Below are positions 20,549 through 38,189 of a stretch of 64,000 nucleotides of DNA, one piece after another (positions within the stretch are counted from its first letter, which is position 1; every line of letters begins with the position of its first letter). The stretch comes from an uncultured Actinomycetes bacterium. GTDB taxonomy: Bacteria; Actinomycetota; Thermoleophilia; UBA2241. Both the position numbers and the translations under genes were made by a program. The DNA lies in contig CAVRZA010000001.1 of assembly GCA_963725665.1 (NCBI GenBank), forward strand, positions 1 through 64,000, in the 5' to 3' direction. Below the pieces are notes generated by a model, which searched no databases, was not told the origin of the DNA, and saw only the letters and a program-made list of their open reading frames with translations.

Positions 20549-21634
20549 TCACTTTGCCCAGAGCAGATAGGGCGCCTCCGCTGCCTCGGCCGGCGTGAGT
20601 TGCATCGGCAGCGTGACCCGGCATCCCGTCGCCGCGGACCTGTAGGCGGCGTAGATGACCTCCAGAGAGACGAGGCCATCGAAGCCGGTCTCCATCGGCT
20701 CCCGATCCTCGACGACGCAGTCCGTGAAATGCTGCATCTCCTGCGGCATCCCGTAGTTGTAGTACTCCTCGGCGATCGCGAAGCTGTACCCGGTCGTCGT
20801 GCCTTTTTCGACCGAGTAGCCGTAGCCGACGTCGCTGTAGGCGAACAGGGACGACTGCTGCATCATGTCGCCGTGGCACGTGCCGGCGCTGCCCTGGATG
20901 TCGAGCCGGTCGTCCATGCCGCCCGGCTTGGCCCAGCTCGTCTCCACCAGGCCGATCCGGTCGCCCTCGAAACGGATAGTCACCAGGGCGTGGTCCTCCA
21001 GGTCGGTACGGTCACCGTGCACGAACGTGCCGAGCTCCGCGGTGACCGACTCGATGGCCGGCTTGTCGTAGAGCCAGCGGATGACCTCGATGCTGTGGCA
21101 CCCCATGTCCATCAAGACACCGCCACCCGAGAGCTCGCCCTGCCAGAACCAGTCAGAGTGCGGGCCGTAGTGCGACTCGCCGTGCTTGACCTGGAAGACC
21201 CGACCGAAAGCGCCCTCGTCCATGAGCTCCTTGGCGCGCACGTAGCGCGGCGCAAAGCAGATCAGCTCGGCGTACATGAGCTTGATCCCCGCACGCTCCG
21301 CGGCGTCGAGCATCTCGCGAGCGTCGGCCAGCGTTCTAGCCAGGGGCTTCTCGCAGACGACGTGCTTGCCCGCTGCGGCGGCCGCGACGACGATCTCGCG
21401 GTGGGTGTTGTTGGGCGCGCCGACGCAGACCATGTCGACGTCGGCGCGCTCCAACACACGTCGGTAGTCGTCGTAGGCCTCCGGCACGCCGTACGTGTCG
21501 GCCAGTCGCCGTGCCCGCGACGTGGCGGGATCGGCTACGGCGACCAGGCGCGCGCCCTTCACTCGCTGGAAAGCGAGCGCGTGCTGGTCGCCGATCAGAC
21601 CGGCTCCGATCAGTCCCACACCTATCTCGCTCAC
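20549..21634 (-). CDS. Gfo/Idh/MocA family oxidoreductase
   Basis: GLIGAGLIG, HVVCEKP and GGGVLMDMGCH; GTG start after GGAGG. Confidence 0.92.
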   Translation of the reverse strand: MSEIGVGLIGAGLIGDQHALAFQRVKGARLVAVADPATSRARRLADTYGVPEAYDDYRRVLERADVDMVCVGAPNNTHREIVVAAAAAGKHVVCEKPLARTLADAREMLDAAERAGIKLMYAELICFAPRYVRAKELMDEGAFGRVFQVKHGESHYGPHSDWFWQGELSGGGVLMDMGCHSIEVIRWLYDKPAIESVTAELGTFVHGDRTDLEDHALVTIRFEGDRIGLVETSWAKPGGMDDRLDIQGSAGTCHGDMMQQSSLFAYSDVGYGYSVEKGTTTGYSFAIAEEYYNYGMPQEMQHFTDCVVEDREPMETGFDGLVSLEVIYAAYRSAATGCRVTLPMQLTPAEAAEAPYLLWAK

Positions 21635-21681
21635 GTCTTCCTCCAGGGTATCGTCGCACCGTTGGCAGGCACGCCTCTCCT

Positions 21682-23166
21682 TCAGTCCGTGACGGCGCCG
21701 ACGTCGCGGTCCGCCCGTCGCACGATCCCCCCGATGAGGGCAAGAACGTCGCCCGGCAGCGGCTCGACCACGTGCTCGGAAAGGATCTGACGAGCCTGAT
21801 CGCGCGCACGCTGCGCCAGGTCCGCACCTCCCGTCATCTCCCAGGCGTCGCGCACGTCGCGGCTGAACAGGTGCGGCTGACTCGCCTCGCGCATGTGTCG
21901 GCGGGTGTGTGCAGTGGACATGAAGTTGCCTGCCGGCCCGACCGCCTCGATCACGTCGACCGCCAGAGTCTCGTCCGTGACGGCGACGCCGCGCACGAAC
22001 TGGCGGATGAGCGCTATGGCCTCGTTGTCCATGACCATCTGGCCCAGGTCGCAGGTCATTCCCGACTCGAGCATCCCCGCACCGTAGATCAGGCTGGCCC
22101 CTGCCAGCGCTGGCGCTAGTCCGGTGAGGGTCTTCTCGTACGCGACCTGCGCGTCGCTCACCTTTGAGTCTCCCTACAACCCCGCCACCCAGCAGGGGAT
22201 GCTGTACCTGCGCGAGATCTGAGCGATACAGGCGTTGAGGAGAGCGGTCTCGGGTGTGCCGACGGAGGCGGTGCCTAGGCGCAGGTCCATGCCTGTCGTG
22301 GAGGACGAGTACAGCACCGGCGCGCCGCGCTCCGCGAGCTGGACCAGCGTGATGCCGGCCAGCACCTCGGCGTTGTGCAGGACCAGCGTGCCGGCCATCG
22401 TCTGGGGGGAGGAGCCCCCGGCCATGCACATGCTCAGGATGCTCAGCGGCAGTCCCGCACGAGCTGTATCGAGGCACACGTCGCTCCCCTGTTGCGTGAG
22501 CTGCAGGGGGCTGACGCAGCACATGCCGAAACCGGTGATGGGACGTTCGCGCAGTGCGTCCCTGCCGCCGCTCACCGCCGCCGCCATCTCGAGACAGGCG
22601 GCCGTCTCACGTTTCGACAGCGGGCCGAACATCATCGGCTTGGTGACGTGTGGCAGGGCGGCCGCGAAGTGATGCACGGTAGCCACCTCTTCGTGGCAGT
22701 CGCGCGGCGTGATGGCGGCCTCGTAGACGTCGATCTCGTCGCACCAGTCGACCACTGTGCACACGTCGGCGACGTCGTGCGTCGCGGTGGGCCTGTTCTC
22801 GCCCGTCACGAGGTCGTTGATCATGACGGCCTCACCGAAGTTCATGAAGGCGAGGCGCCCGCCGCCGAGGACGATGTCGTTGCGGGGGTCGCGTCCGCAC
22901 CAGCGGATCAGGGGCGGCGTCGAGCGGATCGCCTCCTCGACCGTCGCCGGCGGGATGCGTACCCTGCGGGTCTCGCGATCGACGTGGCAGCCGCCATCGG
23001 CGAACACGTCGATCGCGTCGTCGGCCTCGACCCACACACCCGTTCGCTCCAGCACCTCGAGCGTCGCCAGGTGGATGTCCTGCAGGTCGCCCTCGCTCAG
23101 GGGCGCCATGCCGATCCCGTCCCAGCGCGAGTAGCCGGCACGGTCGTGGCGTTTCATCTCGCTCAT
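21682..23166 (-). CDS. mttB: Trimethylamine:corrinoid methyltransferase (MttB family), predicted pyrrolysine-containing through the in-frame TAG at 22174-22176
   Basis: ORFs 22174..23199 and 21682..22161 share a frame and are separated only by TAG: IPCWVAGL-[TAG]-GDSKVSDAQVAYEKT. Readthrough from ATG 23166 (GAAGGAGG upstream) gives 494 aa. MttB motifs include IHLATLEVLERTGV, SPLQ, TMAGTLV..NAEVLAG and GAGMLE. Confidence 0.9.
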
Positions 23167-23246
23167 CGCCTCCTTCATCTTCGTTGTGCCTCTGAGCACT
23201 CGTCTTCGTCGGTGCCCCGCACCGGGCCCGCCGTCGATCAGCGTCC

Positions 23247-24470
23247 CTATCCCGACAGGTGCGCCGTCAGCGATTGCAGGGCGCGATACGTGCGCGTCAC
23301 GAGGACGTCGTCGGCCGGTCGCGACAGACTCGAGAACTTGGCTACGACGATCCCTGCCGCGGGGCTAACGTACAGCATCTGACCATACATCCCGAGCCCC
23401 ATGAACGCCTGTTGCTCGCCGGGCTCACCGACCCAGAAGCAGCTCCTGTACGCCCAGCCGCGCGGCAAGTCGGAGCAATCGGCCGCGTTGGCGAAGGCGA
23501 TCGGGTCGCGTTGTCGCAGATGTCGTCGATCCACCACACCGGCACGACCCTGCGAGCCGCAAGCGTGCCGCGCTGCGCGAGCATCGAGACCGAAGCGCGC
23601 GAGGTCCCGCAGGCTGCAGCAGAACCCGCCGTCGAGCTGCGCGCTGCCGGCGCCGTCGAGTGCGATGTAGGCGTCGTCCTCGGCCCCGAGCTGCGACCAG
23701 ACCTCGCGAGCGATGAGCTCCGCCATCGGCACGCCGGTCGCTCGCTCCATCACCCAGCCGAGCACGTCGGTGTTGAGCGAGACGTAGTGCAGTACAACGC
23801 CGTGCTCTCCCTCCTTGACCGTCGTGGTGGCGTACTCGTAGACGGAGCCCGGCTCGTCGGACGCGCGGCTCGGCTTCACGCCGCACAGGCGGTCGAGCCG
23901 CGCGTCCTCCGTCTCGTCGTCCTCGTGATCCTCCGTGTAGCGGATGCCGACCGTCATGTCCAGCAGATGGCGCACACGAGCGTCGCCGTAGGCGCTGCCC
24001 GCGAGCTCGGGCACGTGTCGCGTGACCGGGTCGTCGGGAGAGATGACGCCGCGGTCGACCAGGTTGGCGGCGACGCACGAGGCGATCGACTTGGTGATCG
24101 AGTGGCAGAGATGCGGACGAGCAGCGGTCAGGGACCCGAAGTACCGCTGGTAGACGACCCTGCCGGCGTGCCACAAGAGAATGCCGTCGGTCGAGGTCTC
24201 CGCAAGCATCTCGGCGACTGTCCAAGAGCCACCGGCGGAGTCGGCCATCTCGACGTCGTCGAGATCGATAGGGTCCTCGGGGAGCTGCGTCACAACCCCG
24301 CGCGCGGCGACGTTCGCGGTCGGCTCGACCTCACGCACGTGCTGCATGAACCATCGCGTCGCAGCCGGCCGGGCGTACACCTGGTCGGCTGCGACGCGAT
24401 CGGTCGGCGGTGGCGGAAAACCCCGCATGACGGCAACTGCGCGCGCGTCCATCGCCTCTCGAGCACTCAT
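23247..24470 (-). CDS. Beta-lactamase-fold serine hydrolase (NylB/6-aminohexanoate-dimer hydrolase-like amidase); two apparently compensating frameshifts near 23510-23580
   Basis: SITKS (SxxK), HLLDM, Y.S.NTDVLG, RDLARFG and G.YGQ. Confidence 0.85.
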   Translation of the reverse strand: MSAREAMDARAVAVMRGFPPPPTDRVAADQVYARPAATRWFMQHVREVEPTANVAARGVVTQLPEDPIDLDDVEMADSAGGSWTVAEMLAETSTDGILLWHAGRVVYQRYFGSLTAARPHLCHSITKSIASCVAANLVDRGVISPDDPVTRHVPELAGSAYGDARVRHLLDMTVGIRYTEDHEDDETEDARLDRLCGVKPSRASDEPGSVYEYATTTVKEGEHGVVLHYVSLNTDVLGWVMERATGVPMAELIAREVWSQLGAEDDAYIALDGAGSAQLDGGFCCSLRDLARFGLDARAARHACGSQGRAGVVDRRHLRQRDPIAFANAADCSDLPRGWAYRSCFWVGEPGEQQAFMGLGMYGQMLYVSPAAGIVVAKFSSLSRPADDVLVTRTYRALQSLTAHLSG

Positions 24471-24524
24471 GCCTTGATCTGTCTCAGCCCGGACGTCGCA
24501 CCAGACCACCCGTGCGCCGGGCTG

Positions 24525-25316
24525 CTACTCCCCGAAGGACGGCACGGGAGGAGCCATCCGCGGATCGGACCAGAAGCCGTGCATGATGCCGCCGTCGACG
24601 CGGATGGTGATGCCGGTGATGTAGGCGGCGTCGTCGGAGGCGAGGAACAGCACGACGTTCGCCTGATCTCGAGGCTTGGCCGGCCGGCGCATCGGGATCT
24701 TCTCCATGTAGCTGCGGTAGGTCTCGAGGTCGTTCGTGAAGTCCATCATGGGCGTCATCGTCATGCCCGGAGCGACCGCGACGCAGCGCACGCCACGGTG
24801 GGCGAGCTCGAACGCCATGCTCTGCGTGAGCAGGTTCACGCCCGCCTTCGCCGCGTTGTAGTCGGCGTAGGGTGACTCGACGATGAACGAGTTGCACGAC
24901 GAGATGTTCACGATCACGCCGCCGCCGTGCTCCACCATGTTCCGCGCCGCCGCCTGGCTCATGTAGAAGACGCCCGAGAGATTGGTGGCGATCACGTCTT
25001 GCCATTGCTCAGGTGTGATGTCGAGGACACCGGTCTGCGGGGCGATGCCGGCGCAGTTGACCAGCGCGTGTATCCGTGGGCGCTCCTCGAGCACCTGCTC
25101 CACCGCTCCTCGCACGGCAGCCGGGTCGCGCACGTCGAGCACTAGGGGCTCGATCGCGCCGCCAGGCGCCTGAGACTGCGTCTCCTGCAGCCTGGCGGCG
25201 TCGCGCCCCACGGCCACGACGTGCGCACCCTCTTCGGCGAACGCGACCGCGATCGCTTGCCCGATGCCGCTCGATGCGCCGGTGACGATGACGTTCTTGC
25301 CTGCGAAGCGTCTCAT
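24525..25316 (-). CDS. Short-chain dehydrogenase/reductase
   Basis: TGASSGIG, NCAG and YNAAK. Confidence 0.93.
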   Translation of the reverse strand: MRRFAGKNVIVTGASSGIGQAIAVAFAEEGAHVVAVGRDAARLQETQSQAPGGAIEPLVLDVRDPAAVRGAVEQVLEERPRIHALVNCAGIAPQTGVLDITPEQWQDVIATNLSGVFYMSQAAARNMVEHGGGVIVNISSCNSFIVESPYADYNAAKAGVNLLTQSMAFELAHRGVRCVAVAPGMTMTPMMDFTNDLETYRSYMEKIPMRRPAKPRDQANVVLFLASDDAAYITGITIRVDGGIMHGFWSDPRMAPPVPSFGE

Positions 25317-25356
25317 CTCTCGATCCCCCTGGTCGCGACACTCTCTGCGGGCGGCT

Positions 25357-26579
25357 CTAGGCGCGCGGCGCCACCGGGAACTCCAGTGGCTCGTCGCCAC
25401 GGATCTCGCGCAGCAGATCGATGTAGTAGCAGAAGTTCTCGAGCGGCATGTCGATCGGCACAAGGTGGTCCGGGCTTGGGAAGTAGGGACCAGTCTCTAC
25501 CAGATACGGTACCTTGCCCATGACCTCGCGCCTTACCGACTCCTTGTCGCGCATGAGCTCTCGCTTGTCGAGTCCTCCAGCCAAGATGATGTCCCTGCCG
25601 TACTGCTTGCGCAGGGCGACCGGATCCATGCCCGCGGCGCACTCTAGCGGCCAGAACAGGTTGATGCCGACCTCCAGCCACAACGGCAGCAACTGCTCGA
25701 TGTTGCCGTCGCAGTCGAGGTAGATGACCTCACAACCGGCGCCGCGGATGACCTCGTTGAGCACACGATAGCGCGGCATCATGAAGCGCCGGACCATGTC
25801 GGGCGAGATCATAGACCCACTCTTGTAGGCCATGTCCTCCCAATACCAGACCCAGTCGAGTCGGATGTCCCTGCTCACACGACGGACCATCTCCAGCTCG
25901 AGGTGGAGGATCGTGTCCATCATGTCTTCGACGAGTCCAGGATCGTCGTAGAACAGGTACATGAGGTCCTGCGTGCCGACCCACATGTTGATGTAGCCGA
26001 AGAACCCGCCGACCTCCATCGACACCGGGCAATCGAGAGCGTTGATGCGGGCCGCGTAAGCATCCCAGTCGGCCGGATACCGCTCCGGCGTGGTCGGGTC
26101 GAGCCTCTCCTTGAACCTCTCCCACGACGCCCGATCCCTTACGGGATGCTCGAGCCACATCGGCATGTTGAAGGCCTGTCTTTGAGCAGCCGCTCTGTGA
26201 TCCCGGTGCTGTTGACCACCACCAGGCTCTTCTCGTCCTCTTCGAGCACCCGCGGCTCGAGGGGCGGGCACACGAGGAACGAGTGGTTGTGTGCCGTGAC
26301 GCCTGGCAGGTAGGTATGCATCTCGGTGCCGGCGTCCATGCCACTGTGGACCTCGGCCAGCGACCGCGACTCGTCGAAGCCGAAGAAGTGGTCGACATCG
26401 CTGGGCGTGCCGTAGTCCTGTTCGCCCACGAGCGCGAAACTGGCCGGCGCACCCTGCTCGACCCAGGCCGGCAGGGTCTCAGGCCAGAAGATGTGGACGC
26501 CGTTGCCGACGATGCCGAAGTCGCCCAGACGCTCCCCCCGACAGATCTCGCGAAAACGCTGTCTGCTGAACTCCGTCAC
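25357..26579 (-). CDS. Uroporphyrinogen decarboxylase-like (MtaA/CmuA-type methylcobamide methyltransferase fold) protein; frameshift near 26175
   Basis: EDMAYKSGSMISP..VRRFMMP.Y, DCDGN, PLECAAGMD, GGLDK and PSPDH.VP; start overlaps the stop of the corrinoid gene (GTGA). Confidence 0.8.
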
Positions 26580-27225
26580 CGCGCGGTCCTTGCCGCGACA
26601 AGGCGCGCGGCTTCGTCGACGGCCGTGATGCAGTCGTCGGCCTGACCGTCGGCGCCGACTTCGCGGGCCAGGGCGGCCGAGACCGGCGCGCCGCCGACCA
26701 TGACTTTCACGGCGGCGCGCACGCCGGCCGCCTCCAAGGCGTCGATCACGCGCTTGAATTGCGGCGTCGTCGTCGTAAGCAGCGCCGACAGTGCGACGAT
26801 GTCGGCGCCGTGCTCGCGGGCCGCCGCGACGAACCGCTCCGCGCTGACGTCCACGCCGAGGTCGACCACATCGAAGCCGTTGCCCCTCAGCAGCATGCCC
26901 ACCAGGTTCTTGCCGATGTCGTGCAGGTCGCCCTCGACCGTGCCGAGGACCACGGTCCCCTTGCCGAGAGGTGCCTGGCCGACCAGCCGCGGCTGCAGCT
27001 CGTCGAGGCCCATCTTCATGGCACGGACACTGATAAGGATCTCGGGCAGGAACGCTTGTCCGTCTTTGAAGAGGTCGCCGAGCTCCTGCATCCCTGGTAT
27101 GAGGCCTTCGGACAAGACATCGGCGGGCGAGTCGCCGGCGGCCACCGCGGCTTTCACCGAGGCCACGTCGCCCGATGGTCGCCATCACGGACCGCTCGGC
27201 TGATCGATCGAAGCCGCTCGTTCAT
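26576..27225 (-). CDS. Corrinoid (B12-binding) methyltransferase protein, MttC/MtaC-like; frameshift near 27175
   Basis: GDLHDIGKNLV (DxHxxG), LGVDV, SALLTTT and VMVGGAP. The N-terminus MNERLRSISRAVRDGD is in a shifted frame. Confidence 0.92.
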
Positions 27226-27303
27226 GCCATCCCTTCGCCGCCATCCGCGCGCGGCGTCGCTCGGGCGCGGATGTCGCGGGTCCGCACACGCGCCTGTGCA
27301 TGA

Positions 27304-27324
27304 TCGCACACCGTGGATGTGCGA
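27304..27324. promoter_or_regulatory. Candidate DeoR-family operator in the divergent promoter
   Basis: Inverted repeat TCGCACA-N7-TGTGCGA, with another TTCGCACA just before the DeoR start. Confidence 0.4.
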
Positions 27325-27385
27325 ACGTCCGCGTAAGGCTAGCATTCTCGGTTGCAGTCTCACAACGGCCGGGATAGATTCGCAC

Positions 27386-28150
27386 ATGATGGATGTTCAG
27401 ACGCGCCGCGCGATCGCACTCGAGCTGATCCAAGAACAGGGCGAAGTCAGCGTCGCCGAGTTGAGCGCCCGTACCGGCGTTTCCTGCATGACGATCCGGC
27501 GCGATCTGGAGCTCCTGGAGACGGAAGGTGCCGTGCGGCGTGTGCACGGAGGGGCTATCGGCCTCGCCTCGCGCGGGTACGCGGCGCCTTACTCGGTCCG
27601 GAACACGCGCGCCGTCGCGGCCAAGGAGAGGATAGGGCAAGCGGCGGCTGGACTGCTGGCGGACCGAGAGACCGTCGTGCTGGACGTGGGCACGACGACG
27701 CTTCAAGTCGCGCGAGCGATGAGTCAAAAGCGCAATCTCACCGTGCTCACGCCGAGCCTGCGCATCGCCCAGGTGCTCTCGTCCAACACCGGGATCCGCC
27801 TCATGGTCACCGGTGGCCTCGTTGCGCCGGGCGAGCTCTCTCTCGTGGGAGACATGGCAGAAGGAGCGTTTTCGAGGCTGCGGTTCGACACGCTGCTCAT
27901 GGGCGTAGGCGGGATCGACGTAGAGGCGGGTGTGACGGAGTTCAGCTTGGAGGACGCACGCGTCAAGCGCGCAGCGCTGGCAAGCGTGCGTCGCTGCATC
28001 GTCGTCGCGGATAGCTCGAAGCTCGGCAAGGTCACGTTCGCGCAGGTATGCCCGCTGGCAAGCGTCGGGGTCGTCGTTACCGACAGCGATGCCGCCCGCG
28101 AGGACATCGAAGCTCTGCAATCGGAGCACGTGGAGGTGGTGGTCGCCTGA
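27386..28150 (+). CDS. DeoR/GlpR family transcriptional regulator
   Basis: VS.MTIRRDL..LE, RVHGGA, LDVGTT and ADSSK. Confidence 0.95.
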   Translation: MMDVQTRRAIALELIQEQGEVSVAELSARTGVSCMTIRRDLELLETEGAVRRVHGGAIGLASRGYAAPYSVRNTRAVAAKERIGQAAAGLLADRETVVLDVGTTTLQVARAMSQKRNLTVLTPSLRIAQVLSSNTGIRLMVTGGLVAPGELSLVGDMAEGAFSRLRFDTLLMGVGGIDVEAGVTEFSLEDARVKRAALASVRRCIVVADSSKLGKVTFAQVCPLASVGVVVTDSDAAREDIEALQSEHVEVVVA

Positions 28151-28968: not shown

Positions 28969-30414
28969 GCGTGCTGCTGGGCATAGACGTCGGCACCACC
29001 GGCACGAAGGCACTACTGCTCGACTCGGAGAAGGGCGTGGTCGCCGAGGCCGAGCGTCCCAACCAGCTGCACTCGATCAACCCGGGTTGGGCCGAGGAGG
29101 ACACGGACGAGTGGTGGACGAACGTCTGCGCCACGACGCGCGAGCTAGTCGCGGGCGTCGATGTGGCAGGCATCGGCGTCACGGGCATGGTGCCCTGCAC
29201 GATCCCACTCGACGCGGGCGGGCAGCCACTGCGCTGGTCGATCCAGCAGAACGACGCCCGCTCCGTGGACGAGGTCGAGGAGCTGCAATCGTCGGCTGGC
29301 GGGCACTCGCGTCCTGGAGCGCACCGGCTCGGCGATCACCCAGCAGTCCACCGGCCCGCGCCTGCTGTGGCTTGCCGAACACGAGCCCGAGGTGTGGGAC
29401 AAGACCCGCACGCTGATGGGCTCCTACGACTACATCTCGATGCGCCTCAGCGGCTCGCGCACCGTGGAGGCGAACTGGGCACTGGAGACAGGGCTGCTCG
29501 ATTTCGCCTCGATGCGCTGGGCCGACGACGTGCTGCAGGCTTGCGGCGGAAGCGCCGAGCTGCTGCCGCCGATCCGCCGCTGCGACGACGTCGTCGGCGC
29601 CGTGACCGCTGAGGCAGCGGCCGCGACCGGCCTCAAGGCAGGCGTCCCAGTGGTCGCCGGCACCGCCGATCACATCGGCTCCACGTTCGCCTCGGGAGTG
29701 CTCGACGACGGCGACCTTCTCGTCAAGCTGGGCGGCGCCGGCGATATCATGCTCGCCGTCGACGAGCCGTTCGTCGATGACCGGCTGTACCTGGACTTCC
29801 ACCTCCTACCGGGGCGTTTCGTGCTCAGCGGCTGCATGGCCACCAGCGGCAGCCTCATCAAGTGGTTCCAACGCACGCTGGCCGACGGCGCTACCCTGTC
29901 GCAGCTCGACGACGAGGCGGCGGCGCTGCCGCCGGGGGCCGGCGGCGTCTTCTGCCTGCCCTACTTCCTCGGCGAGAAGACGCCTCTCAACGACCCGGAG
30001 GCCACCGGCGCCTTGGTCGGTCTGCAGCTCACTCAGTCCCGTGGCCACCTGTTCAGGGCCGTGCTGGAGGGGATCGCCTACGGCTTCCGCCACCACCTGG
30101 AGGTCTTTGCGGAGCGCGGGCGCAGGCCGCTGCGCGCACGGGTGACCGACGGCGGCTCACGCTCGCGGGTCTGGACGCAGATCACTGCCGACGTGCTCGG
30201 CATCCCCCTCGAGAAGGTCACTCTGCGCAGCGGTTCGGCCTTCGCGGCCGCTTTCTGCGCGGGCATGGGCGTGGGCGCCTTCTCCGACTGGCGCGACGTC
30301 GATCGCTTCGTGGCGGTCGACGAAGTCATAGAGCCCCATCCCGACGACGTCTATGAGCGCGGATACCGGCGCTTCCGGGCTCTGTACCCGGCCCTTAAGG
30401 AGGTGCTGACATGA
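28965..30414 (+). CDS. FGGY family carbohydrate kinase (xylulokinase-like); frameshift near 29290
   Basis: LGIDVGTTGTK, AGTAD, LPYFLGEKTP, RAVLEGIAY and GGSRS..WTQI.ADVLG. Confidence 0.9.
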
Positions 30415-31165: not shown

Positions 31166-31252
31166 ACGGTTCAGCGTCAACGCAATCGGAGCTGCGACAG
31201 GGCGCTATCGCCCGAGCAAATGTGATCGCCTCGACGAACGAGAGGGGGAGCC

Positions 31253-32854
31253 ATGAGTGACGAGGATGCACGATCGGTCGACGCATTGGACAGAAGGTTC
31301 ACCCGGCGCGAAGTCGTGAAGGGTGCCGTGGTGGCGGGTGCTGCCGTCAGCCTCGGCAGTCTGCTCGCGGCCTGCGGTGGAGGTACGAGCTCGAGCTCGC
31401 CGACGGCGAGCGCCAGCACGGCGGGGTCGCCGAAGATGGGTGGCACCGTCCGCGCCGGCATCACCGGCGGCTCGAGCTCGAACACCCTCGACGTGACCGC
31501 CGAGGTCACCGAGTCAGATGCCGCGCGCTGCTGCATGTGCTACGAGGCGCTCGTCGAGATTCAGGCCGACGGCAAGATGGCCATGCTTCTCGCCGAGTCG
31601 ATGACGCCCAACGCGGACGCCACTGAGTGGATCATCAAGTGCAAGCCTGACATCACGTGGCACAACGGCAAGGCCTTCGGCGCCGACGACGTGGCCTACA
31701 GCTACAACTACATCGCCAAGAACAAGAAGAACGGCGCCGGCTTCTTGTCGCTGGTGGACCTACCGGCGATGAAAGTGCTGGACAAGCTGACGTTGAAGGT
31801 GCCGATGAAGGTGCCGTACAGCACGTTCATCCAGGTACAGCCGACGTGGTTCCTGCCCATCATCCCCGTCGGCTACAACCCCAACAAGCCGAATGGCACC
31901 GGTCCGTTCAAGATCACGAGCTTCTCGCCCCAGCAGACGGTCTTCGAGCGCTATCCCAACTACTGGCTGAGCCCCAAGCCGTACCTGGACAAGGTCGTCA
32001 TGATCGAGTACGCCGACATAACGGCACAGGTCAACGCCTTGCTTGGCGGCCAGGTTGAGACGGTCAGCCTCCTTTCGTCCGACGAGATCCCATCACTCGA
32101 GAGCCAGGGCAAGAAGGTCGTCATCTCCCCCGGCGGCGGCATGAACCCCTTCACCATGAACACCCAGGTGGCGCCGTTCGACGACGTGCGCGTGCGCCAG
32201 GCCATGCGGCTCTTGGTCGACCGCAAGCAGATGCTCGATCTCGTGTTCAAGGGCAACGGCACCATCGGCAACGACGTCACCTCGCGCTGGGACCCCGCCT
32301 ACGACACCTCGATCCCGCAGCGCGAACAGGACATCGAGCAAGCCAAGTCGCTGCTCAAGGCCGCGGGCAGGGAGGGCCTCACGGTCGAGCTCGTCACGGC
32401 CGACATCGCCATGGGCGTGGTCAACAGCGCGCAGGTCTACGCCCAGCAGGCGCAGGCCGCTGGCGTCACCGTCAAACTGCGGAAGACAACGGTGACCGAC
32501 TTCTTCGGGGGGACGTATCTCAATTACCCGTTCGCCTTCGACTACTGGGGCTTCCAGTACTACCTGCCGCAGGTCGCCTCGGAGCTGCTGCCGAACTCGC
32601 CGTACAACGAGACGCACTGGGACAATGCGCGTACGCAGAAGCTCTACAAGGAGGCGCTGGCGACGCCCGACGAGGCCAAGCGCGCCGAGATCGCGCACGA
32701 GATGCAGAAGATCGACCACGAAGAGGGCGGACTGATCATCCCGTTCTTCCCGCCGGTCATCGACGGCTACAACCCCAACCTGCAGGGCATCGTGCCGAGC
32801 AGGATCGGCGCGCCCTGGGACAACTTCCGCTTCATGAACTACTGGCTGAGCTGA
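31253..32854 (+). CDS. Family 5 ABC substrate-binding lipoprotein with Tat-like signal
   Basis: TRREVVK...LAAC lipobox; GTGPF and PFDDVRVRQAM. Confidence 0.92.
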   Translation: MSDEDARSVDALDRRFTRREVVKGAVVAGAAVSLGSLLAACGGGTSSSSPTASASTAGSPKMGGTVRAGITGGSSSNTLDVTAEVTESDAARCCMCYEALVEIQADGKMAMLLAESMTPNADATEWIIKCKPDITWHNGKAFGADDVAYSYNYIAKNKKNGAGFLSLVDLPAMKVLDKLTLKVPMKVPYSTFIQVQPTWFLPIIPVGYNPNKPNGTGPFKITSFSPQQTVFERYPNYWLSPKPYLDKVVMIEYADITAQVNALLGGQVETVSLLSSDEIPSLESQGKKVVISPGGGMNPFTMNTQVAPFDDVRVRQAMRLLVDRKQMLDLVFKGNGTIGNDVTSRWDPAYDTSIPQREQDIEQAKSLLKAAGREGLTVELVTADIAMGVVNSAQVYAQQAQAAGVTVKLRKTTVTDFFGGTYLNYPFAFDYWGFQYYLPQVASELLPNSPYNETHWDNARTQKLYKEALATPDEAKRAEIAHEMQKIDHEEGGLIIPFFPPVIDGYNPNLQGIVPSRIGAPWDNFRFMNYWLS

Positions 32855-32876
32855 GCCGCCCGGCGAAGCGAAACAG

Positions 32877-33899
32877 GTGACCGCGGTCCCACAAGCTGCA
32901 GCAGGGCCGACGCCGAGGGTGCGGGCGAGGCCGACGCACCACCCGATCCTCAGTCTGGTGGGGCGACGCCTCGCCCTCGGCATCGTCACCCTGTGGCTGG
33001 TCTCGATCGTCATCTTCGCCGCGACGCAAGTGCTGCCCGGCAACGCCGCCTACGCGGTCCTCGGGCAGCACGCCACGCCCGACAGGGTCGCGGCGCTCGA
33101 GAAGCAGCTCCACCTCGACCAGCCGATGGTCGTCCAGTACTGGGAGTGGATCTCCGGCGTGCTCAAGGGCGATCTCGGTACCTCGTTCGCCAATGGAGAC
33201 GCCGTCAGTCATCTCGTGGGGCCCCGGATCATCAACTCCGCCGTCCTGGTGCTGCTCGCCGGCCTCTTCGGCACGGTCATCGGCGTCGCGCTGGGCATCA
33301 TCGCGGCGGCGCGCCGTGACGGCTGGCTCGACAACGTGCTTTCCGTCTTCGCGCTGGCCGTCACGGCGCTGCCCGAGTTCGTGGTCGCGATCGGGCTGGT
33401 GATGCTGTTCGCCTCCCTGGCCCTGCACGTCCTCCCGGGGACATCGTTCATCCCCCCGGGCGTCTCGCCGTGGGCGGACCCCTCGCTGCTGGTTCTCCCG
33501 GTCGCCACGCTGGTCATCGTCATCGTGCCCTACATCTTCCGCATGATGCGCGGGGCGATGATCGAGGCCCTCGAGAGCGACTACGTCGAGATGGCCAAGC
33601 TCAAGGGGGTGTCGCGCTGGCGCGTCATGCTCGTGCACGCCCTGCCCAACTCCATAGCGCCGACCATCCAGGTGATCGGTCTCAACCTCCTGTACCTCGC
33701 CGGCGGCATCGTCGTGGTCGAGTACGTGTTCGCCTATCCGGGGATGGGAGCCGGGCTCGTCGACGGTGTGGCGGCGCGAGACATCCCCACGATCCAGTTC
33801 ATCACCCTGGTGTTGGCCGCCTTCTACGTCTTCATGAACATCCTGACCGACGTGGTGGCGCTGCTGGCTTCGCCCCGGCGCCGGTTGCCGCGCTCGTGA
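32877..33899 (+). CDS. ABC permease (DppB/OppB-like)
   Basis: LDQP...QY..W....L.GDLG.S; EAA-type loop DYVEMAKLKG. Confidence 0.93.
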   Translation: MTAVPQAAAGPTPRVRARPTHHPILSLVGRRLALGIVTLWLVSIVIFAATQVLPGNAAYAVLGQHATPDRVAALEKQLHLDQPMVVQYWEWISGVLKGDLGTSFANGDAVSHLVGPRIINSAVLVLLAGLFGTVIGVALGIIAAARRDGWLDNVLSVFALAVTALPEFVVAIGLVMLFASLALHVLPGTSFIPPGVSPWADPSLLVLPVATLVIVIVPYIFRMMRGAMIEALESDYVEMAKLKGVSRWRVMLVHALPNSIAPTIQVIGLNLLYLAGGIVVVEYVFAYPGMGAGLVDGVAARDIPTIQFITLVLAAFYVFMNILTDVVALLASPRRRLPRS

Positions 33900-33914
33900 C
33901 GAGGACCGTCGATC

Positions 33915-34874
33915 GTGGCGAGTGAGGGTAAGGCCACGCGAACGCCTACCAACGGCGGGCGGCAGGCCAGGGTGCGCCGACACGAGTGGCTGGCCGTGCT
34001 GCGAGCGGCCGCCCGCAGCCGGCGCGGCAAGATCGGACTGTGCGTGGCGTCCGTCGTGATCGGCATCGCCGTCATCGGTCCCTTCGTGGCGCCGCACTCC
34101 GCCACCGAGTTCGTCAGCTCGACGTTCGATCCGCCAAGCGCCGAGTACTGGCTCGGCACCGACGTTCTGGGACGCGACGTGTTGAGCCGCATCCTCGACG
34201 GCGGCTGGCTGCTGCTCGTGGTTGCGGCGGCCGCTACCGTGCTTGGCGTCGCCGTCGGCGCCTTCGCCGGCATCGCCGCAGCCTACTATCGTGGCTGGAA
34301 AGACGGTCTGATCATGCGCATCGTCGACGTCATCCTGGCGTTTCCGGCCATCGTGTTCGCCCTGCTCCTGGTCAGCATCGCCGGTCCCAAGCTCTGGCTC
34401 GTCGTGGTCGCCGTAGCCGCCACTCACGCGCCGCAGGTCGCGCGCGTCATGCGCGCCTCCGCTCTCGACATCTGCGAGAAGGACTTCGTCAAGGCCATCG
34501 AACTGATCCGGGTGCCATCGCGCAAGATCATTCGCGGGGAGGTCCTGCCCAATCTGGTCACGCCGCTGATGGTCGAGACCGGTCTGCGGATGACCTGGTC
34601 CATCGTCATCATCGCCGGGCTGAGCTTCATCGGCTTCGGCTTGCAGCCACCGGCGCCCAACTGGGGCCTCATGCTCAACGAGAACCGCATCGGGCTGGTC
34701 AGCAACCCCTGGGCGGTCATCGCGCCGGCATTGCTGATCGCCCTGCTCACCGTCGGTCTGAACACGTTCACCGACGCCGTGGCTCGTGTGTCGATAGGGG
34801 TCGAACGTCCCGTCGGCGAGCAGCAGCTCCTCGAGGAGCAGCTCATCGGCCGGCCGCTCGACGCGGTAGGCTGA
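33915..34874 (+). CDS. ABC permease (DppC/OppC-like)
   Basis: LGTDVLGRDVLSR and LSFIGFGLQPP.P.WG.ML. Confidence 0.93.
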   Translation: MASEGKATRTPTNGGRQARVRRHEWLAVLRAAARSRRGKIGLCVASVVIGIAVIGPFVAPHSATEFVSSTFDPPSAEYWLGTDVLGRDVLSRILDGGWLLLVVAAAATVLGVAVGAFAGIAAAYYRGWKDGLIMRIVDVILAFPAIVFALLLVSIAGPKLWLVVVAVAATHAPQVARVMRASALDICEKDFVKAIELIRVPSRKIIRGEVLPNLVTPLMVETGLRMTWSIVIIAGLSFIGFGLQPPAPNWGLMLNENRIGLVSNPWAVIAPALLIALLTVGLNTFTDAVARVSIGVERPVGEQQLLEEQLIGRPLDAVG

Positions 34875-34875
34875 C

Positions 34876-36718
34876 ATGGGCGAGGCGCCCTGCCTTGTCG
34901 TAGAGGGCCTGCGCGTCGACCTGGCCAAGTCGACCGTCGACGTCGTCGACGACATCTCACTGACCGTCGACGCCGGCCAGGTCGTGGGCCTTGTGGGCGA
35001 ATCGGGCTCGGGCAAGACCACGGTAGCCCTCGCCCTGCTGGGCCACGCACGGCGCGGACTGAAGGTGGTCGCCGGCACGGTCATCCTCGAAGGCAGGGAT
35101 GTGCTCACGATGTCGCCGCACGAGCTCAAGCGGCTGCGCGGTCGCGGCGTCGCCTACGTGCCTCAAGACCCGGGGAGCGCACTCAACCCCTCGCTCAAGG
35201 TCGGCTACCAGCTCAAGGAGGCGCTGGAGGTGCACGCCGGCGAGGATTCCGGTCTGCCCGACGTCAAGGAACGCATGGCGCAGGTGCTGGCCGAGGTCGA
35301 CCTGACGGCCAGCGCGGAGATCCTCGGCTCGTACCCGCATCAGCTCTCCGGCGGTCAGCAGCAGCGCATCGCCCTCGCCATGGCCTTCTCCTGCCGCCCC
35401 GGGCTCATCGTGCTCGACGAGCCGACCACGGGGCTCGACGTGGCCACCCAGCGTCACGTGCTCGACACGGTACGAGGATTGTGCAGGTCCTACGGCGTGG
35501 CGGCGGTGTACGTGACCCACGACCTGGCGGTCATCGCGGAGATCGCCGATCGGGTGGCGGTGATGTACGCGGGATGGCTCATCGAGCTGGGCTCGACCAA
35601 GGCCGTCTTCGAATCGCCGGCCCACCCCTACACGGCGGGGCTGCTCAAGGCGATCCCCTCTCCTGAGATCTCCCATTCGCTGATCGGGATGGAGGGCCAG
35701 CCTCCCCAGCCGGGCAAAAGACCCCCGGGCTGTCTCTTCGAGCCGCGTTGCCCGCACGCCATCCCCGAGTGCAGCAGGGCGCGTCCCCGGCTGGAGGCGG
35801 TCAACGGCAACGCCCACGAAGCGCGGTGCATCAGGGCGAAGGAGCTCATCCTGACAGCGGCCGGCGTCGAGCAGCTAGCGGCGGAGCGAGCCGACGTAGA
35901 GACGGGGGCCACCAAGCCGCCTCTGTTCGTGGTCAAGGGGCTTGACGGCCACTACGCGGAGAAGCAGATCCTCTACGACGTCTCGCTGGAGATACCGGAG
36001 ACGGCGTGCGTGGCCGTCGTCGGCGAGTCGGGCTCGGGCAAGACGACTCTGGCGCGCTGCCTCACCGGCATGCACGGCAACTGGACCGGCAGCGTCTCCT
36101 TCGCGGGCAAGGAGCTCAAGCCCACGGCGAGGGAGCGCGACCTCGAGGTGCTGCGCTCGGTGCAGTACATCTTCCAGAACCCCTACACCTCGCTCAACCC
36201 GCGCAAGACGATCGGCCAGCTCGTCGAGCAGCCCCTGGCGCACTTCTTCAAGCTCTCGCCGCGCGAGCGCACGGAGCGGGTGGTCGACGACGCTCGAGGC
36301 CGTGGCGCTGAGCGGCGACTTCCTGGGCCGTTACCCGGACCAGCTCAGCGGCGGCGAGCGTCAGCGGGTGGCCATCGCGCGGGCGCTCATCGTGGAGCCG
36401 AGATTGCTGGTGTGCGACGAGGTCACCTCGGCGCTCGACGTGTCCGTGCAGGCGGCGGTCGTGGAACTTCTCCGCCGCCTGCAGCACGAACGCGGCCTGA
36501 GCCTGCTCTTCATCACGCACAACCTCGCCCTCGTGCGCAGCATCGCGCAGGAGGTCGTCGTCTTGCACGAAGGCCGCATCGTCGAGCGCGGGCCGACGGA
36601 CCGGGTGCTCTCGCATCCCGTCGACGACTACACCATTCGCCTCCTTGAAGATGTGCCCAAGCTCACGTCGCTGACCGGTCCGGTCCCCGAGCGCGGCACG
36701 GCCATCGCCTCGACGTGA
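34876..36718 (+). CDS. Fused double ABC ATPase (DppD/F-like); frameshift near 36290
   Basis: Two GESGSGKT Walker A motifs; LSGGQQQR and LSGGERQR signatures, the second in a shifted frame. Confidence 0.92.
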
Positions 36719-36758
36719 GGCCAGTCGCCGACGGCCGGCAATGAGATAGGGAGCGGTC

Positions 36759-38189
36759 ATGCCATCACCCCGGGTCTCTCTGCTGCATCCCTCCGATCGC
36801 GATCTCATCCATGAGCGGACGCTGGAGGTGCTCGACCAAGTCGGGGTGCGCTTTCAGAGCGCGAACGCGCGAGAGGTTCTCAAGGATGCTGGATGCAGGG
36901 TCGATCACGAGGGCGGGATCGTGCGCATTCCCGCACAGTTGGTGGAGTGGGCCCTTGACCAACTGCCGAGAGATGTCCTTCTGGCCGGCCGCGACCCCGG
37001 TCGCGACGCGCTCCTCGACGGGTCGAGGACATTCGCGACCGTCGCCGGGATCTGCCCCTATATCGTCGACGTGGACACCGGGCTCTACAGGGCTCCGCGA
37101 CTGCGCGACGTAGAAGACGTGACGCGCATCGCCGATGCCCTCGACGCTTTCGGCATCGTCTGGTACTCCGTCAGCCCGACCGCAGACACCGCGGCGAAGA
37201 TGACCGATCTGGCAGCCACGGCGCGCATGCTCGCAGCCACCAGCAAACACGTGATGGGCCAGGTCACTCGCCCGGCTGAAGTCCCTTATGCCCTCGAGCT
37301 CGTTCGCCTGTGTGCTGCGGACGACGACCGCCCTTTGTTCTCGATCATCTACTGTCCGGTCGCGCCCCTGCAGCACGGCGGTCCGGCGATCGAAGCGGCC
37401 ATGGCTCTGGCCGCCCAACGCGTGCCCATCGACATCTTCAGCCTCGGTCTCGCCGGGGCGACGGCGCCGGTCACCCTTGCCGGCACGATCACGCAGACCA
37501 ACTGCGAGGTGCTGAGTGCCGCCGTGCTCCTCCAGCTCGTCGCCCCCGGCTGCCCCCTCATCTACTCTGCCAACGCCGGCATCATGGACATGCGGACCTC
37601 CCGTTTCGCCGTCTCGACCCCCGAGACGATCCTCATGAACGTCGCTCAGATCGAGCTGGCCCATTCCTACGGCATGCCGGCGCTCAGCGTGGGCTTCGTG
37701 CCCGACACCAGCGAGCTGGGGTTCCGCGGCGGCGTCGAGGACATGGCGTTCGCGCTGCCGACCCGCCTCGCTTGCCCGGACATCATGACCGGCCTGGGGA
37801 CCCTCGAGGCCGGTCAGGCGGTGTCGCTGCCCAAGATGCTGCTCGACGCCGAGATCGTGGCGTACCTGGATCGTGTGATGGAGGGTATCGCGGTGGACGG
37901 AGAGCACATCTCCGTCGAGGCAATCAGGTTGGCCGGCGCCGGCGGGCAGTACCTTTCGCAGAAAGAGACGCGCACGCGCATACGGGCAGGCGAGCACTGG
38001 CTCCCGGACCTGTTCCACAGACGCTCCTATTCGGAGCGACAGGGCGGCGCCCCTGACGAGATACACGGCGCGGCCAAGCGCGCGGCAGAGATCCTAGCCA
38101 CGCACAGGCCCCTTCCACTCCCGCCGGGAGCAGCCGAGCGCGTCGCCGACGTTCTCCTGGCGGCCGAACGCGAGTTGCCCGGCGCATGA
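36759..38189 (+). CDS. MttB-superfamily corrinoid methyltransferase without pyrrolysine (MtgB/MtcB-like paralog)
   Basis: IHERTLEVLDQVGV, APLQ, APVTLAGT...NCEVL and MDMRT...PE. The segment matching the Pyl site reads PALSVGF-V-PDTS, with no TAG. Confidence 0.88.
   Translation: MPSPRVSLLHPSDRDLIHERTLEVLDQVGVRFQSANAREVLKDAGCRVDHEGGIVRIPAQLVEWALDQLPRDVLLAGRDPGRDALLDGSRTFATVAGICPYIVDVDTGLYRAPRLRDVEDVTRIADALDAFGIVWYSVSPTADTAAKMTDLAATARMLAATSKHVMGQVTRPAEVPYALELVRLCAADDDRPLFSIIYCPVAPLQHGGPAIEAAMALAAQRVPIDIFSLGLAGATAPVTLAGTITQTNCEVLSAAVLLQLVAPGCPLIYSANAGIMDMRTSRFAVSTPETILMNVAQIELAHSYGMPALSVGFVPDTSELGFRGGVEDMAFALPTRLACPDIMTGLGTLEAGQAVSLPKMLLDAEIVAYLDRVMEGIAVDGEHISVEAIRLAGAGGQYLSQKETRTRIRAGEHWLPDLFHRRSYSERQGGAPDEIHGAAKRAAEILATHRPLPLPPGAAERVADVLLAAERELPGA

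Follow-up and report, generated by a model that had tools for sequence, protein, structure and literature searches.

Among described systems, the closest counterpart of the gene studied here is MttB, the pyrrolysine (Pyl)-containing trimethylamine methyltransferase of Methanosarcina barkeri. In the description of its structure (PMC9842639), activation is attributed to Pyl334, Tyr364, and Gly110, Met249 acts as the gate of the pocket, and Tyr364 and Gly110 are stated to be 100% conserved in Pyl-MttB, the latter among 66 Pyl-MttBs. In bacteria, as described in the Kivenson preprint, Pyl is found in a few methylamine methyltransferases and TAG otherwise acts as a stop. We have analysed the first 64 kb (64,000 nucleotides) of contig C1 of a metagenome-assembled genome (MAG) from an uncultured actinobacterium, and this whole stretch is called the window below. 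The assembly comprises 3.73 Mb in 12 contigs, with an estimated completeness of 97.5% and an estimated contamination of 5.04%. The window carries an mttB gene interrupted by an in-frame amber codon, and we consider it very likely that this is a genuine Pyl-encoding gene, which the organism would decode with its own system.

Pyl has been recorded in this phylum before. PylRS genes were reported in two Actinobacteria (Guo et al. 2022, PMC9630628), a count that a 2025 review repeats (PMC11764691). The supplements of PMC9630628 list 'Actinobacteria_bacterium_ADurb.BinA094' and 'Thermoleophilia_bacterium' with PylSc and with an empty PylSn column, and the section on PylSc phylogeny says nothing on the two actinobacterial sequences. 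Ellenbogen et al. (PMC10805028) describe Actinobacteriota MAGs that express Pyl-mttB and mtbB in a permafrost mire; there, Pyl was deduced from genes cut short at the amber codon, and the main text makes no mention of pylS, pylT, or pylB. Our literature search, which had subscription papers outside its scope, turned up, besides these two, no paper dealing specifically with Pyl in Thermoleophilia. Pyl in such genomes is thus already in print as a list entry and one sentence, and the window gene is not new in kind.

The amber codon of mttB

The mttB gene is located on the minus strand at 21682-23166. Its frame, read from 23199 to 21682, holds one stop, the TAG at 22174-22176 (...IPCWVAGL-TAG-GDSKVSDAQVAYEKT...), and the gene terminates with TGA at 21682-21684. 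A first-pass annotation of the window had described two open reading frame (ORF) halves that share one frame and are separated by this lone TAG, and frame translation bore this out, with stop-to-stop ORFs at 22174-23364 and 21682-22173. The GC content at third codon positions (GC3) is 0.85 in each half, on either side of the TAG, so the coding signature of this 68% GC genome is unbroken across the codon.

The same annotation had given a read-through product of 494 aa, which holds if translation starts at ATG 23166. We consider the start at ATG 23157 likelier, because the ortholog of a relative (G013) shows the same AAGGAGG, the same spacing, and the same M-K-R start. In that ortholog M-K-R begins 11 nt after AAGGAGG; in the window a Shine-Dalgarno-like AAGGAGG (23169-23175, minus strand) is followed by an 11-nt spacer and ATG-AAA-CGC at 23157, so that the motif and its spacing to ATG-AAR-CG recur in both. 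The predicted protein would then have 491 aa, with the predicted Pyl codon at residue 328.

The read-through protein matches Pfam MTTB (E=1.4e-93). On TIGR02369 (trimeth_pyl), an NCBIfam equivalog, it scores 620.8 bits against a curated cut-off of 525, and 618.4 bits in the genome scan. Its best matches among solved structures are 7xcm and 7xcl, the Methanosarcina trimethylamine methyltransferase (E=4e-100), and the alignment with M. barkeri MttB is full-length (E=4.4e-100, 338.8 bits, query residues 17-498). In this alignment the TAG column corresponds to the X of AGSXSDAKV in 7xcl, which is residue 334 counted along the chain, and the codon accordingly stands in the Pyl334 column, where the first-pass annotation had placed it. 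The columns of Tyr364, Gly110, and Met249 are also kept in the window MttB. On the other hand, two TAG-bearing paralogs of the same genome, C2:287860-289284 and C2:361214-362716, have Asp or Ala in the Gly110 column, where the window copy keeps Gly. This variation is new with respect to the 100% conservation given in PMC9842639. A gene of a relative, L039:9180-10535, is also among the actinobacterial TAG-bearing MttB paralogs with Asp or Ala at the Gly110 column and Glu at the Thr111 column.

The position of the codon is conserved within the genome and beyond it. A tblastn search of the genome with MttB gave 24 matches, five with one stop (48-100% identical) and 19 free of stops (27-35% identical). 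The stop is TAG in the same alignment column in all five Pyl-type mttB paralogs, which lie on contigs C1, C2, and C4. In 41 related genomes, all 82 of the TIGR02369 matches over the cut-off hold exactly one TAG, as do two partial matches under the cut-off; among the matches listed, besides which the scan had 77 weaker ones, those free of stops score at most 471.9 bits. The 163 codons after the TAG are kept in the five paralogs of the genome and in all 82 counted matches of the relatives.

The stop-free members of the superfamily in this genome differ in the corresponding columns, with Val, Ala, or other residues in the Pyl column and Thr or Asn in the Tyr364 column, and they score 356-472 bits on TIGR02369, under the cut-off of 525. 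One of them lies in the window itself on the plus strand, at 36750-38189, with 355.7 bits and Val in the Pyl column; an ABC transporter of the oligopeptide type (31226-36648) precedes it. Non-Pyl MttB paralogs number about 19 in this genome, a very large expansion of the superfamily.

Pyrrolysine machinery and decoding of UAG

The first-pass annotation had proposed a search for pylT with a CUA anticodon, pylSn and pylSc, and pylBCD. All of these were found on contig C6, and the protein genes score over their cut-offs: PylSc at 296347-297081 (TIGR02367, 314.6 against 178 bits), PylSn at 298938-299198 (TIGR03912, 119.9 against 51 bits), PylB at 345979-347001 (448.3 against 348 bits), PylC at 344775-345908 (338.7 against 248 bits), and PylD at 343844-344635 (211.6 against 150 bits). 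A tRNA-Pyl with the anticodon CUA was found with ARAGORN at C6 343702-343774, and pylB, pylC, and pylD are contiguous at C6 343844-347001, adjoining pylT. In its predicted fold, the anticodon stem has 6 bp, the D stem 3 bp, and the variable loop 3 nt, and one base separates the acceptor and D stems; these features are the hallmarks of tRNA-Pyl. The genome also encodes two corrinoid activators of the RamA/RACo type. One match of that type (C11:277489-278214) is interrupted in frame by a TGA, which might encode selenocysteine or reflect an indel error. A tRNA-Sec with the anticodon TCA is present at C11:550041-550138, so selenocysteine, the 21st amino acid, may be in use here beside Pyl, the 22nd.

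In this genome a block of pylSc, a corrinoid gene, a radical-SAM gene, and pylSn is separated by about 44 kb from the pylB-C-D-T block. In two relatives (L021, L022) one locus holds pylSc, the corrinoid gene on the opposite strand, the radical-SAM gene, pylSn on the opposite strand, pylT, pylD, and pylC. The corrinoid and radical-SAM genes between pylSc and pylSn (C6:297147-298875; L003:11145-12875) are also present in L016, L018, and L020 as well as in those two loci, and between genera the radical-SAM gene shows about 72% identity; its NCBIfam matches are weak. Neither gene stands between pylSc and pylSn in the Eubacteriales locus L023. On the basis of these loci, the pyl layout appears to be a lineage-specific difference from the other bacterial systems compared. 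The pylD gene itself stops with TAG (C6:343829-343831), 55 nt upstream of pylT, so UAG suppression would extend PylD. Immediately upstream of pylB, at C6:347041-350501 (L038:9042-12502), there are genes for a nitroreductase-family protein, a ThiS-like protein, and a tungsten-type aldehyde:ferredoxin oxidoreductase, which hint at an anaerobic or microaerobic lifestyle.

The host had been taken for an actinobacterium, and the marker protein RpoB supports this assignment. In a species-representative collection, the closest PylSc proteins come from genomes titled 'uncultured Actinomycetes bacterium' (65%), 'uncultured Thermoleophilia bacterium' (62%), and 'uncultured Eubacteriales bacterium' (49%), and the RpoB identity to these genomes is 86.7%, 82.7%, and 50-59%, respectively. 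RpoB identity and the submitters' labels of close relatives thus support that the host, an uncultured bacterium of soil or wetland, is an actinobacterium.

The system is widespread in the family of this host. Among the nearest relatives, 21 of the 24 genomes that share its family had PylSc over the cut-off, as did one of 16 genomes drawn from six further families in the class. In an even sample of the class, PylSc was present in 83 of 401 genomes, G000 included; it occurred in 73 of the 79 genomes from the host's family and in 9 of the 61 from a second one, and in none of the 260 sampled genomes searched from ten other families. In an even sample of the phylum it was present in 2 of the 401 genomes searched, G000 and one genome of the second family. 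With 73 PylSc-bearing genomes, this family alone comes close to the 81 bacterial genomes with Pyl that a count of 2022 gave. No PylSc was seen in three of the family members searched, although they are nearly complete, namely G009 and G018 (1.7-1.8 Mb, 98% complete) and G123 (93%), which looks like secondary loss. G009 and G018 are small and showed only non-Pyl MttB, which suggests that reduced family members have lost the Pyl system secondarily.

Considering that the window comes from a long-read MAG, it has to be asked whether the TAG is an assembly or sequencing error, or whether C1 and C6 were binned together from different organisms. One mtmB homolog of the genome is broken into three frame-shifted pieces, and the contamination estimate would leave room for a foreign contig. 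However, such errors are indels and not substitutions, and short-read contigs from other studies keep the codon. Logan contigs of four public runs from four studies span 22174-22176, with none of their listed differences at the codon. The TAG is certain in run X2, whose contig has three differences, all of them listed at other positions; for runs X1, X3, and X4 one to three differences per contig lie outside the list. No run holding RNA was listed. More distant Logan contigs have differences listed at 22165, 22167, 22171, and 22183, near the TAG and outside it. The shared TAG column in paralogs on C1, C2, and C4 also speaks against an error. As to binning, the GC contents of C1 (0.679) and C6 (0.680) agree, and pyl genes and TAG-bearing mttB occur together in the relatives; such co-occurrence, in more than 70 related genomes, argues against mis-binning. 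We exclude sequencing error or a chance nonsense mutation as the origin of the TAG, in agreement with the first-pass annotation, which had held a chance change at exactly this codon to be unlikely and had called for a look at read support and at conservation in relatives. The whole reading by error or binning artefact is so improbable as to be nearly negligible.

The use of UAG across the genome bears on a further alternative, in which the TAG is a true stop. Of the 2188 long ORFs whose coding signature is strong, 831 end in TAG (38%), 1241 in TGA, and 116 in TAA, with nearly the same numbers in a second count, and RF1 is present (489.9 against 423 bits). Back-up in-frame stops within 10 codons follow 10.3% of TAG ends and 14.7% of TGA ends; there is no TAG excess, and hence no sign of adaptation to read-through. 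With a true stop, the gene would be split or in decay and would yield a 327-aa product, either alone or alongside a C-terminal one of 163 aa, and the pyl genes would be non-functional, for which there is a published precedent of a predicted pyl set (PMC12626013). Against this, the GC3 of 0.85 continues past the TAG, the 163 codons after it are kept with always one TAG in the same place, the six pyl components are intact, with the protein genes over their cut-offs, and the family keeps PylSc in 73 of its 79 sampled genomes. Decay would not preserve such a pattern of conserved TAG, C-terminal codons, and pyl set, and we regard the true-stop explanation as very unlikely. We prefer the reading in which the organism decodes this UAG as Pyl, as the first-pass annotation had proposed; the Pyl column, the full machinery, and the conservation support it, and from them we infer Pyl insertion.

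In this genome, UAG would serve as a regular stop codon, and a limited number of genes would use it for Pyl as well. The share of TAG among the stops and the presence of RF1 point to decoding that is ambiguous or regulated, as in other Pyl bacteria. Prat et al. are said to have described, in 2012, carbon-source-regulated pyl expression in Acetohalobium. Genome-wide reassignment of UAG of the archaeal 'Code 34' type (bioRxiv 10.1101/2024.09.30.615893) was considered and rejected, since TAG ends 38% of the ORFs, RF1 is kept, and conserved, aligned internal TAGs were seen only in methyltransferase families. A PYLIS-type element was also rejected. Folding compared with shuffles, without covariation analysis, gave no convincing conserved structure: for the 120 nt from the UAG, z was -2.04 in the window copy, where 7 of 200 shuffles folded equally well, and only -0.43 in the L025 paralog, and the 120 nt before the UAG gave z=+0.61.

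The set of TAG-bearing methylamine methyltransferase genes in the genome numbers 14, with five mttB, eight mtbB, and one mtmB. The eight mtbB (dimethylamine) genes score over the TIGR02368 cut-off and hold one TAG each: C2:303445-304812, C3:259394-260767, C1:241214-242593, C4:189712-191085, C2:512556-513905, C2:493948-495300, C2:502572-503927, and C2:503978-505334; one of them is also frame-shifted near its 3' end. The mtmB (monomethylamine) gene, C3:245990-247345, holds one TAG, scores 630.7 bits on its family model, and is accompanied in the genome by non-Pyl MtmB homologs. We also screened 175 same-frame ORF pairs split by TAG, compared them with paralogs, and filtered them by codon-position GC. 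In this screen, an aligned TAG among several paralogs in clear coding frames was found only in the mttB and mtbB families, and the remaining pairs, judged without Pfam comparison, resembled adjacent genes or antisense shadow frames. The mtmB gene was missed by the screen and surfaced only through the family model, and further Pyl genes beyond the 14 may exist.

Neighbourhood and substrate of the window copy

The window mttB belongs to a string of minus-strand genes of a sugar type. Directly downstream lies a gene for a Gfo/Idh/MocA (IolG-like) oxidoreductase (20549-21643; Pfam GFO_IDH_MocA; TIGR04380 184 bits, under the cut-off), which is 81% identical and syntenic in G013 and is followed in the string by a gene for a GAF-GGDEF protein. 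Directly upstream lies a gene for a beta-lactamase-fold serine hydrolase (23247-24509; Pfam Beta-lactamase, 130.6 bits), and before it one for a short-chain dehydrogenase (SDR; 24525-25463; Pfam adh_short_C2, 211.6 bits), both on the minus strand and syntenic in G013. They are preceded by a URO-D-fold gene of the MtbA/MtaA-like kind (25357-26478, minus strand; Pfam URO-D, 36.6 bits), which is a candidate for the second methyltransferase. Only its last ~270 codons look like real coding sequence, and relatives match residues ~100-370 only. The URO-D-like protein had no match in NCBIfam and no paralog in the genome, and its gene was found in 4 of 81 family genomes including G000; in G006 it is located on the same contig as a TAG-bearing mttB.

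At 26576-27184, on the same strand as mttB, a gene with an uncertain 5' end encodes a corrinoid protein with cap and B12-binding domains and the motif GDLHDIGK (Pfam B12-binding 100.6 bits, B12-binding_2 54.7 bits), a candidate MttC-like methyl acceptor. A DeoR-family regulator gene (27400-28150, plus strand, start approximate; Pfam HTH_DeoR and DeoRC at residues 279-506 of the frame 26570-28147) is divergent from the corrinoid/mttB string, as are genes for a BtpA/SgcQ protein and an FGGY kinase. G013, which belongs to a different genus, keeps the order FGGY-BtpA-corrinoid-URO-D-SDR-hydrolase-MttB(TAG)-Gfo/Idh, and its MttB is 75% identical and holds the TAG. Based on this arrangement, the window mttB appears to be a paralog of accessory nature that is specific to its sublineage and belongs to a sugar-type operon. 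The URO-D-like (25357-26478), corrinoid (26576-27184), and FGGY-kinase (29149-30414) genes look out of frame or truncated in their 5' parts; the URO-D-like frame opens with an Arg/Gly-rich stretch and the FGGY match begins at profile position 110. These odd 5' parts are probably long-read indel errors.

We propose the following mechanism. The UAG at 22174-22176 would be read by the organism's own tRNA-Pyl (CUA), charged with pyrrolysine by the split PylSc and PylSn, and the pyrrolysine would be made from lysine by PylB, PylC, and PylD. The Pyl side chain of the enzyme would bind and activate a methylamine, most likely trimethylamine. A cognate B12 protein would accept the methyl group on its Co(I) corrinoid and hand it on to a second methyltransferase; the candidate for this B12 protein is the product of the corrinoid gene located 3.4 kb upstream. 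The activators of the RamA/RACo type would re-reduce the corrinoid. Pyl insertion would compete with termination and would probably be limited by regulated pyl expression, as in other Pyl bacteria.

Several points weigh against this picture. The pyl genes are on C6 and the window mttB is on C1, in a MAG with 5.04% contamination. With 38% TAG ends and no excess of back-up stops, unregulated suppression would be costly. Predicted pyl genes need not be functional, as one archaeal set failed to complement (PMC12626013). In the protein, Thr111 of M. barkeri is replaced by Glu, in the window MttB and in all five TAG copies of the genome. The window copy is the most divergent of the five paralogs and scores lowest on TIGR02369, with 618 bits against 655-735. 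The neighbouring corrinoid protein scores 183.8 bits on TIGR02370, under the cut-off of 215.3, and its gene is separated from mttB by two unrelated genes. Finally, mttB stands among sugar-type genes, without the typical mttC and mttP beside it. The divergence, the sugar-type neighbours, the sub-cut-off corrinoid protein, and the Thr111 replacement make the trimethylamine substrate less certain than the Pyl reading, and we infer no more than that trimethylamine is probably the substrate of the window MttB.

An alternative is that the gene encodes a genuine Pyl enzyme that demethylates another methylated amine. It would have been recruited into a sugar or cyclitol operon (DeoR regulator, BtpA/SgcQ protein, FGGY kinase, SDR, serine hydrolase, and IolG-like dehydrogenase), where a corrinoid protein of its own and a URO-D-like second methyltransferase unique in the genome would serve it. 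The operon order kept across genera in G013, the URO-D-like gene without paralog that occurs in few family genomes and with a TAG-bearing mttB on the same G006 contig, and the low score of the window copy among its paralogs favour such a substrate. However, the protein passes the cut-off of the trimethylamine equivalog and keeps Pyl, Tyr364, Gly110, and Met249, the characterised Pyl-MttB enzymes described in PMC9842639 and PMC10805028 use trimethylamine, and gene neighbourhood alone is weak evidence for a substrate. Considering both sides, we hold this alternative to be unlikely and retain trimethylamine as the favoured substrate. A broader scenario, in which Pyl decoding is ancestral and vertically kept in this soil and wetland Thermoleophilia family, Pyl-MttB has diversified beyond trimethylamine, and the window copy acts on another methylated amine in its sugar or cyclitol operon, is in our opinion unlikely. 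If it holds, the window MttB would be the first bacterial case of a Pyl enzyme that has taken on a new class of substrate.

Comparison with known systems

In this high-GC actinobacterial family, nearly every sampled species keeps the complete system, with up to 14 Pyl genes, and UAG ends more than a third of the genes. In soils and wetlands, its members probably act as sinks for methylamines (tri-, di-, and monomethylamine). Methylotrophic methanogens would then have them as competitors for the precursors of methane, a view that PMC10805028 bases on transcripts. Standard gene callers split TAG-bearing genes, so Pyl capacity is under-counted. The lineage is a natural case for a bacterium living with an ambiguous stop, and it offers new high-GC PylRS/tRNA-Pyl pairs.

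Compared with M. barkeri MttB (PDB 7XCL/7XCM/7XCN; PMC9842639), the window protein is alike in its full-length alignment, in the Pyl334 column, and in Tyr364, Gly110, and Met249, and a corrinoid protein with the DxHxxG motif is encoded near its gene. On the other hand, the host is bacterial and high-GC, Thr111 is replaced by Glu, and mttB has sugar-type neighbours in place of an adjacent mttC/mttP pair. The methyl acceptor after the corrinoid would not by default be the CoM pathway of methanogens. The non-Pyl MttB superfamily, represented by the glycine betaine methyltransferase MtgB (PDB 2QNE/9YCE), shares the TIM-barrel family with the window protein (E=4.3e-69), whereas the non-Pyl members of this genome are without the TAG.

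The Pyl systems of Firmicutes and Deltaproteobacteria, with split PylSn and PylSc (PMC9630628, PMC11764691), resemble that of this genome in the separate pylSc and pylSn genes, in pylBCD, and in a CUA tRNA of Pyl shape. In both, TAG is a frequent stop, RF1 is kept, and Pyl is used in methylamine methyltransferases. They differ in gene order, and the PylSc of this genome is 49% identical to the Eubacteriales (L023) protein.

The published actinobacterial records (PMC9630628, PMC10805028), compared here by description, share with this genome the phylum, one class label, PylSc, and TAG-interrupted mttB and mtbB. In contrast to those records, PylSn and pylT were found here, together with 14 TAG-bearing genes, and the spread across the family was measured. 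In summary, what our study adds to them is the full machinery, with PylSn and pylT among its parts, a total of 14 TAG-bearing genes, the near-universal spread in one family with patchy occurrence in a second, the layout of the pyl locus, and the position of the window copy in a sugar-type operon.

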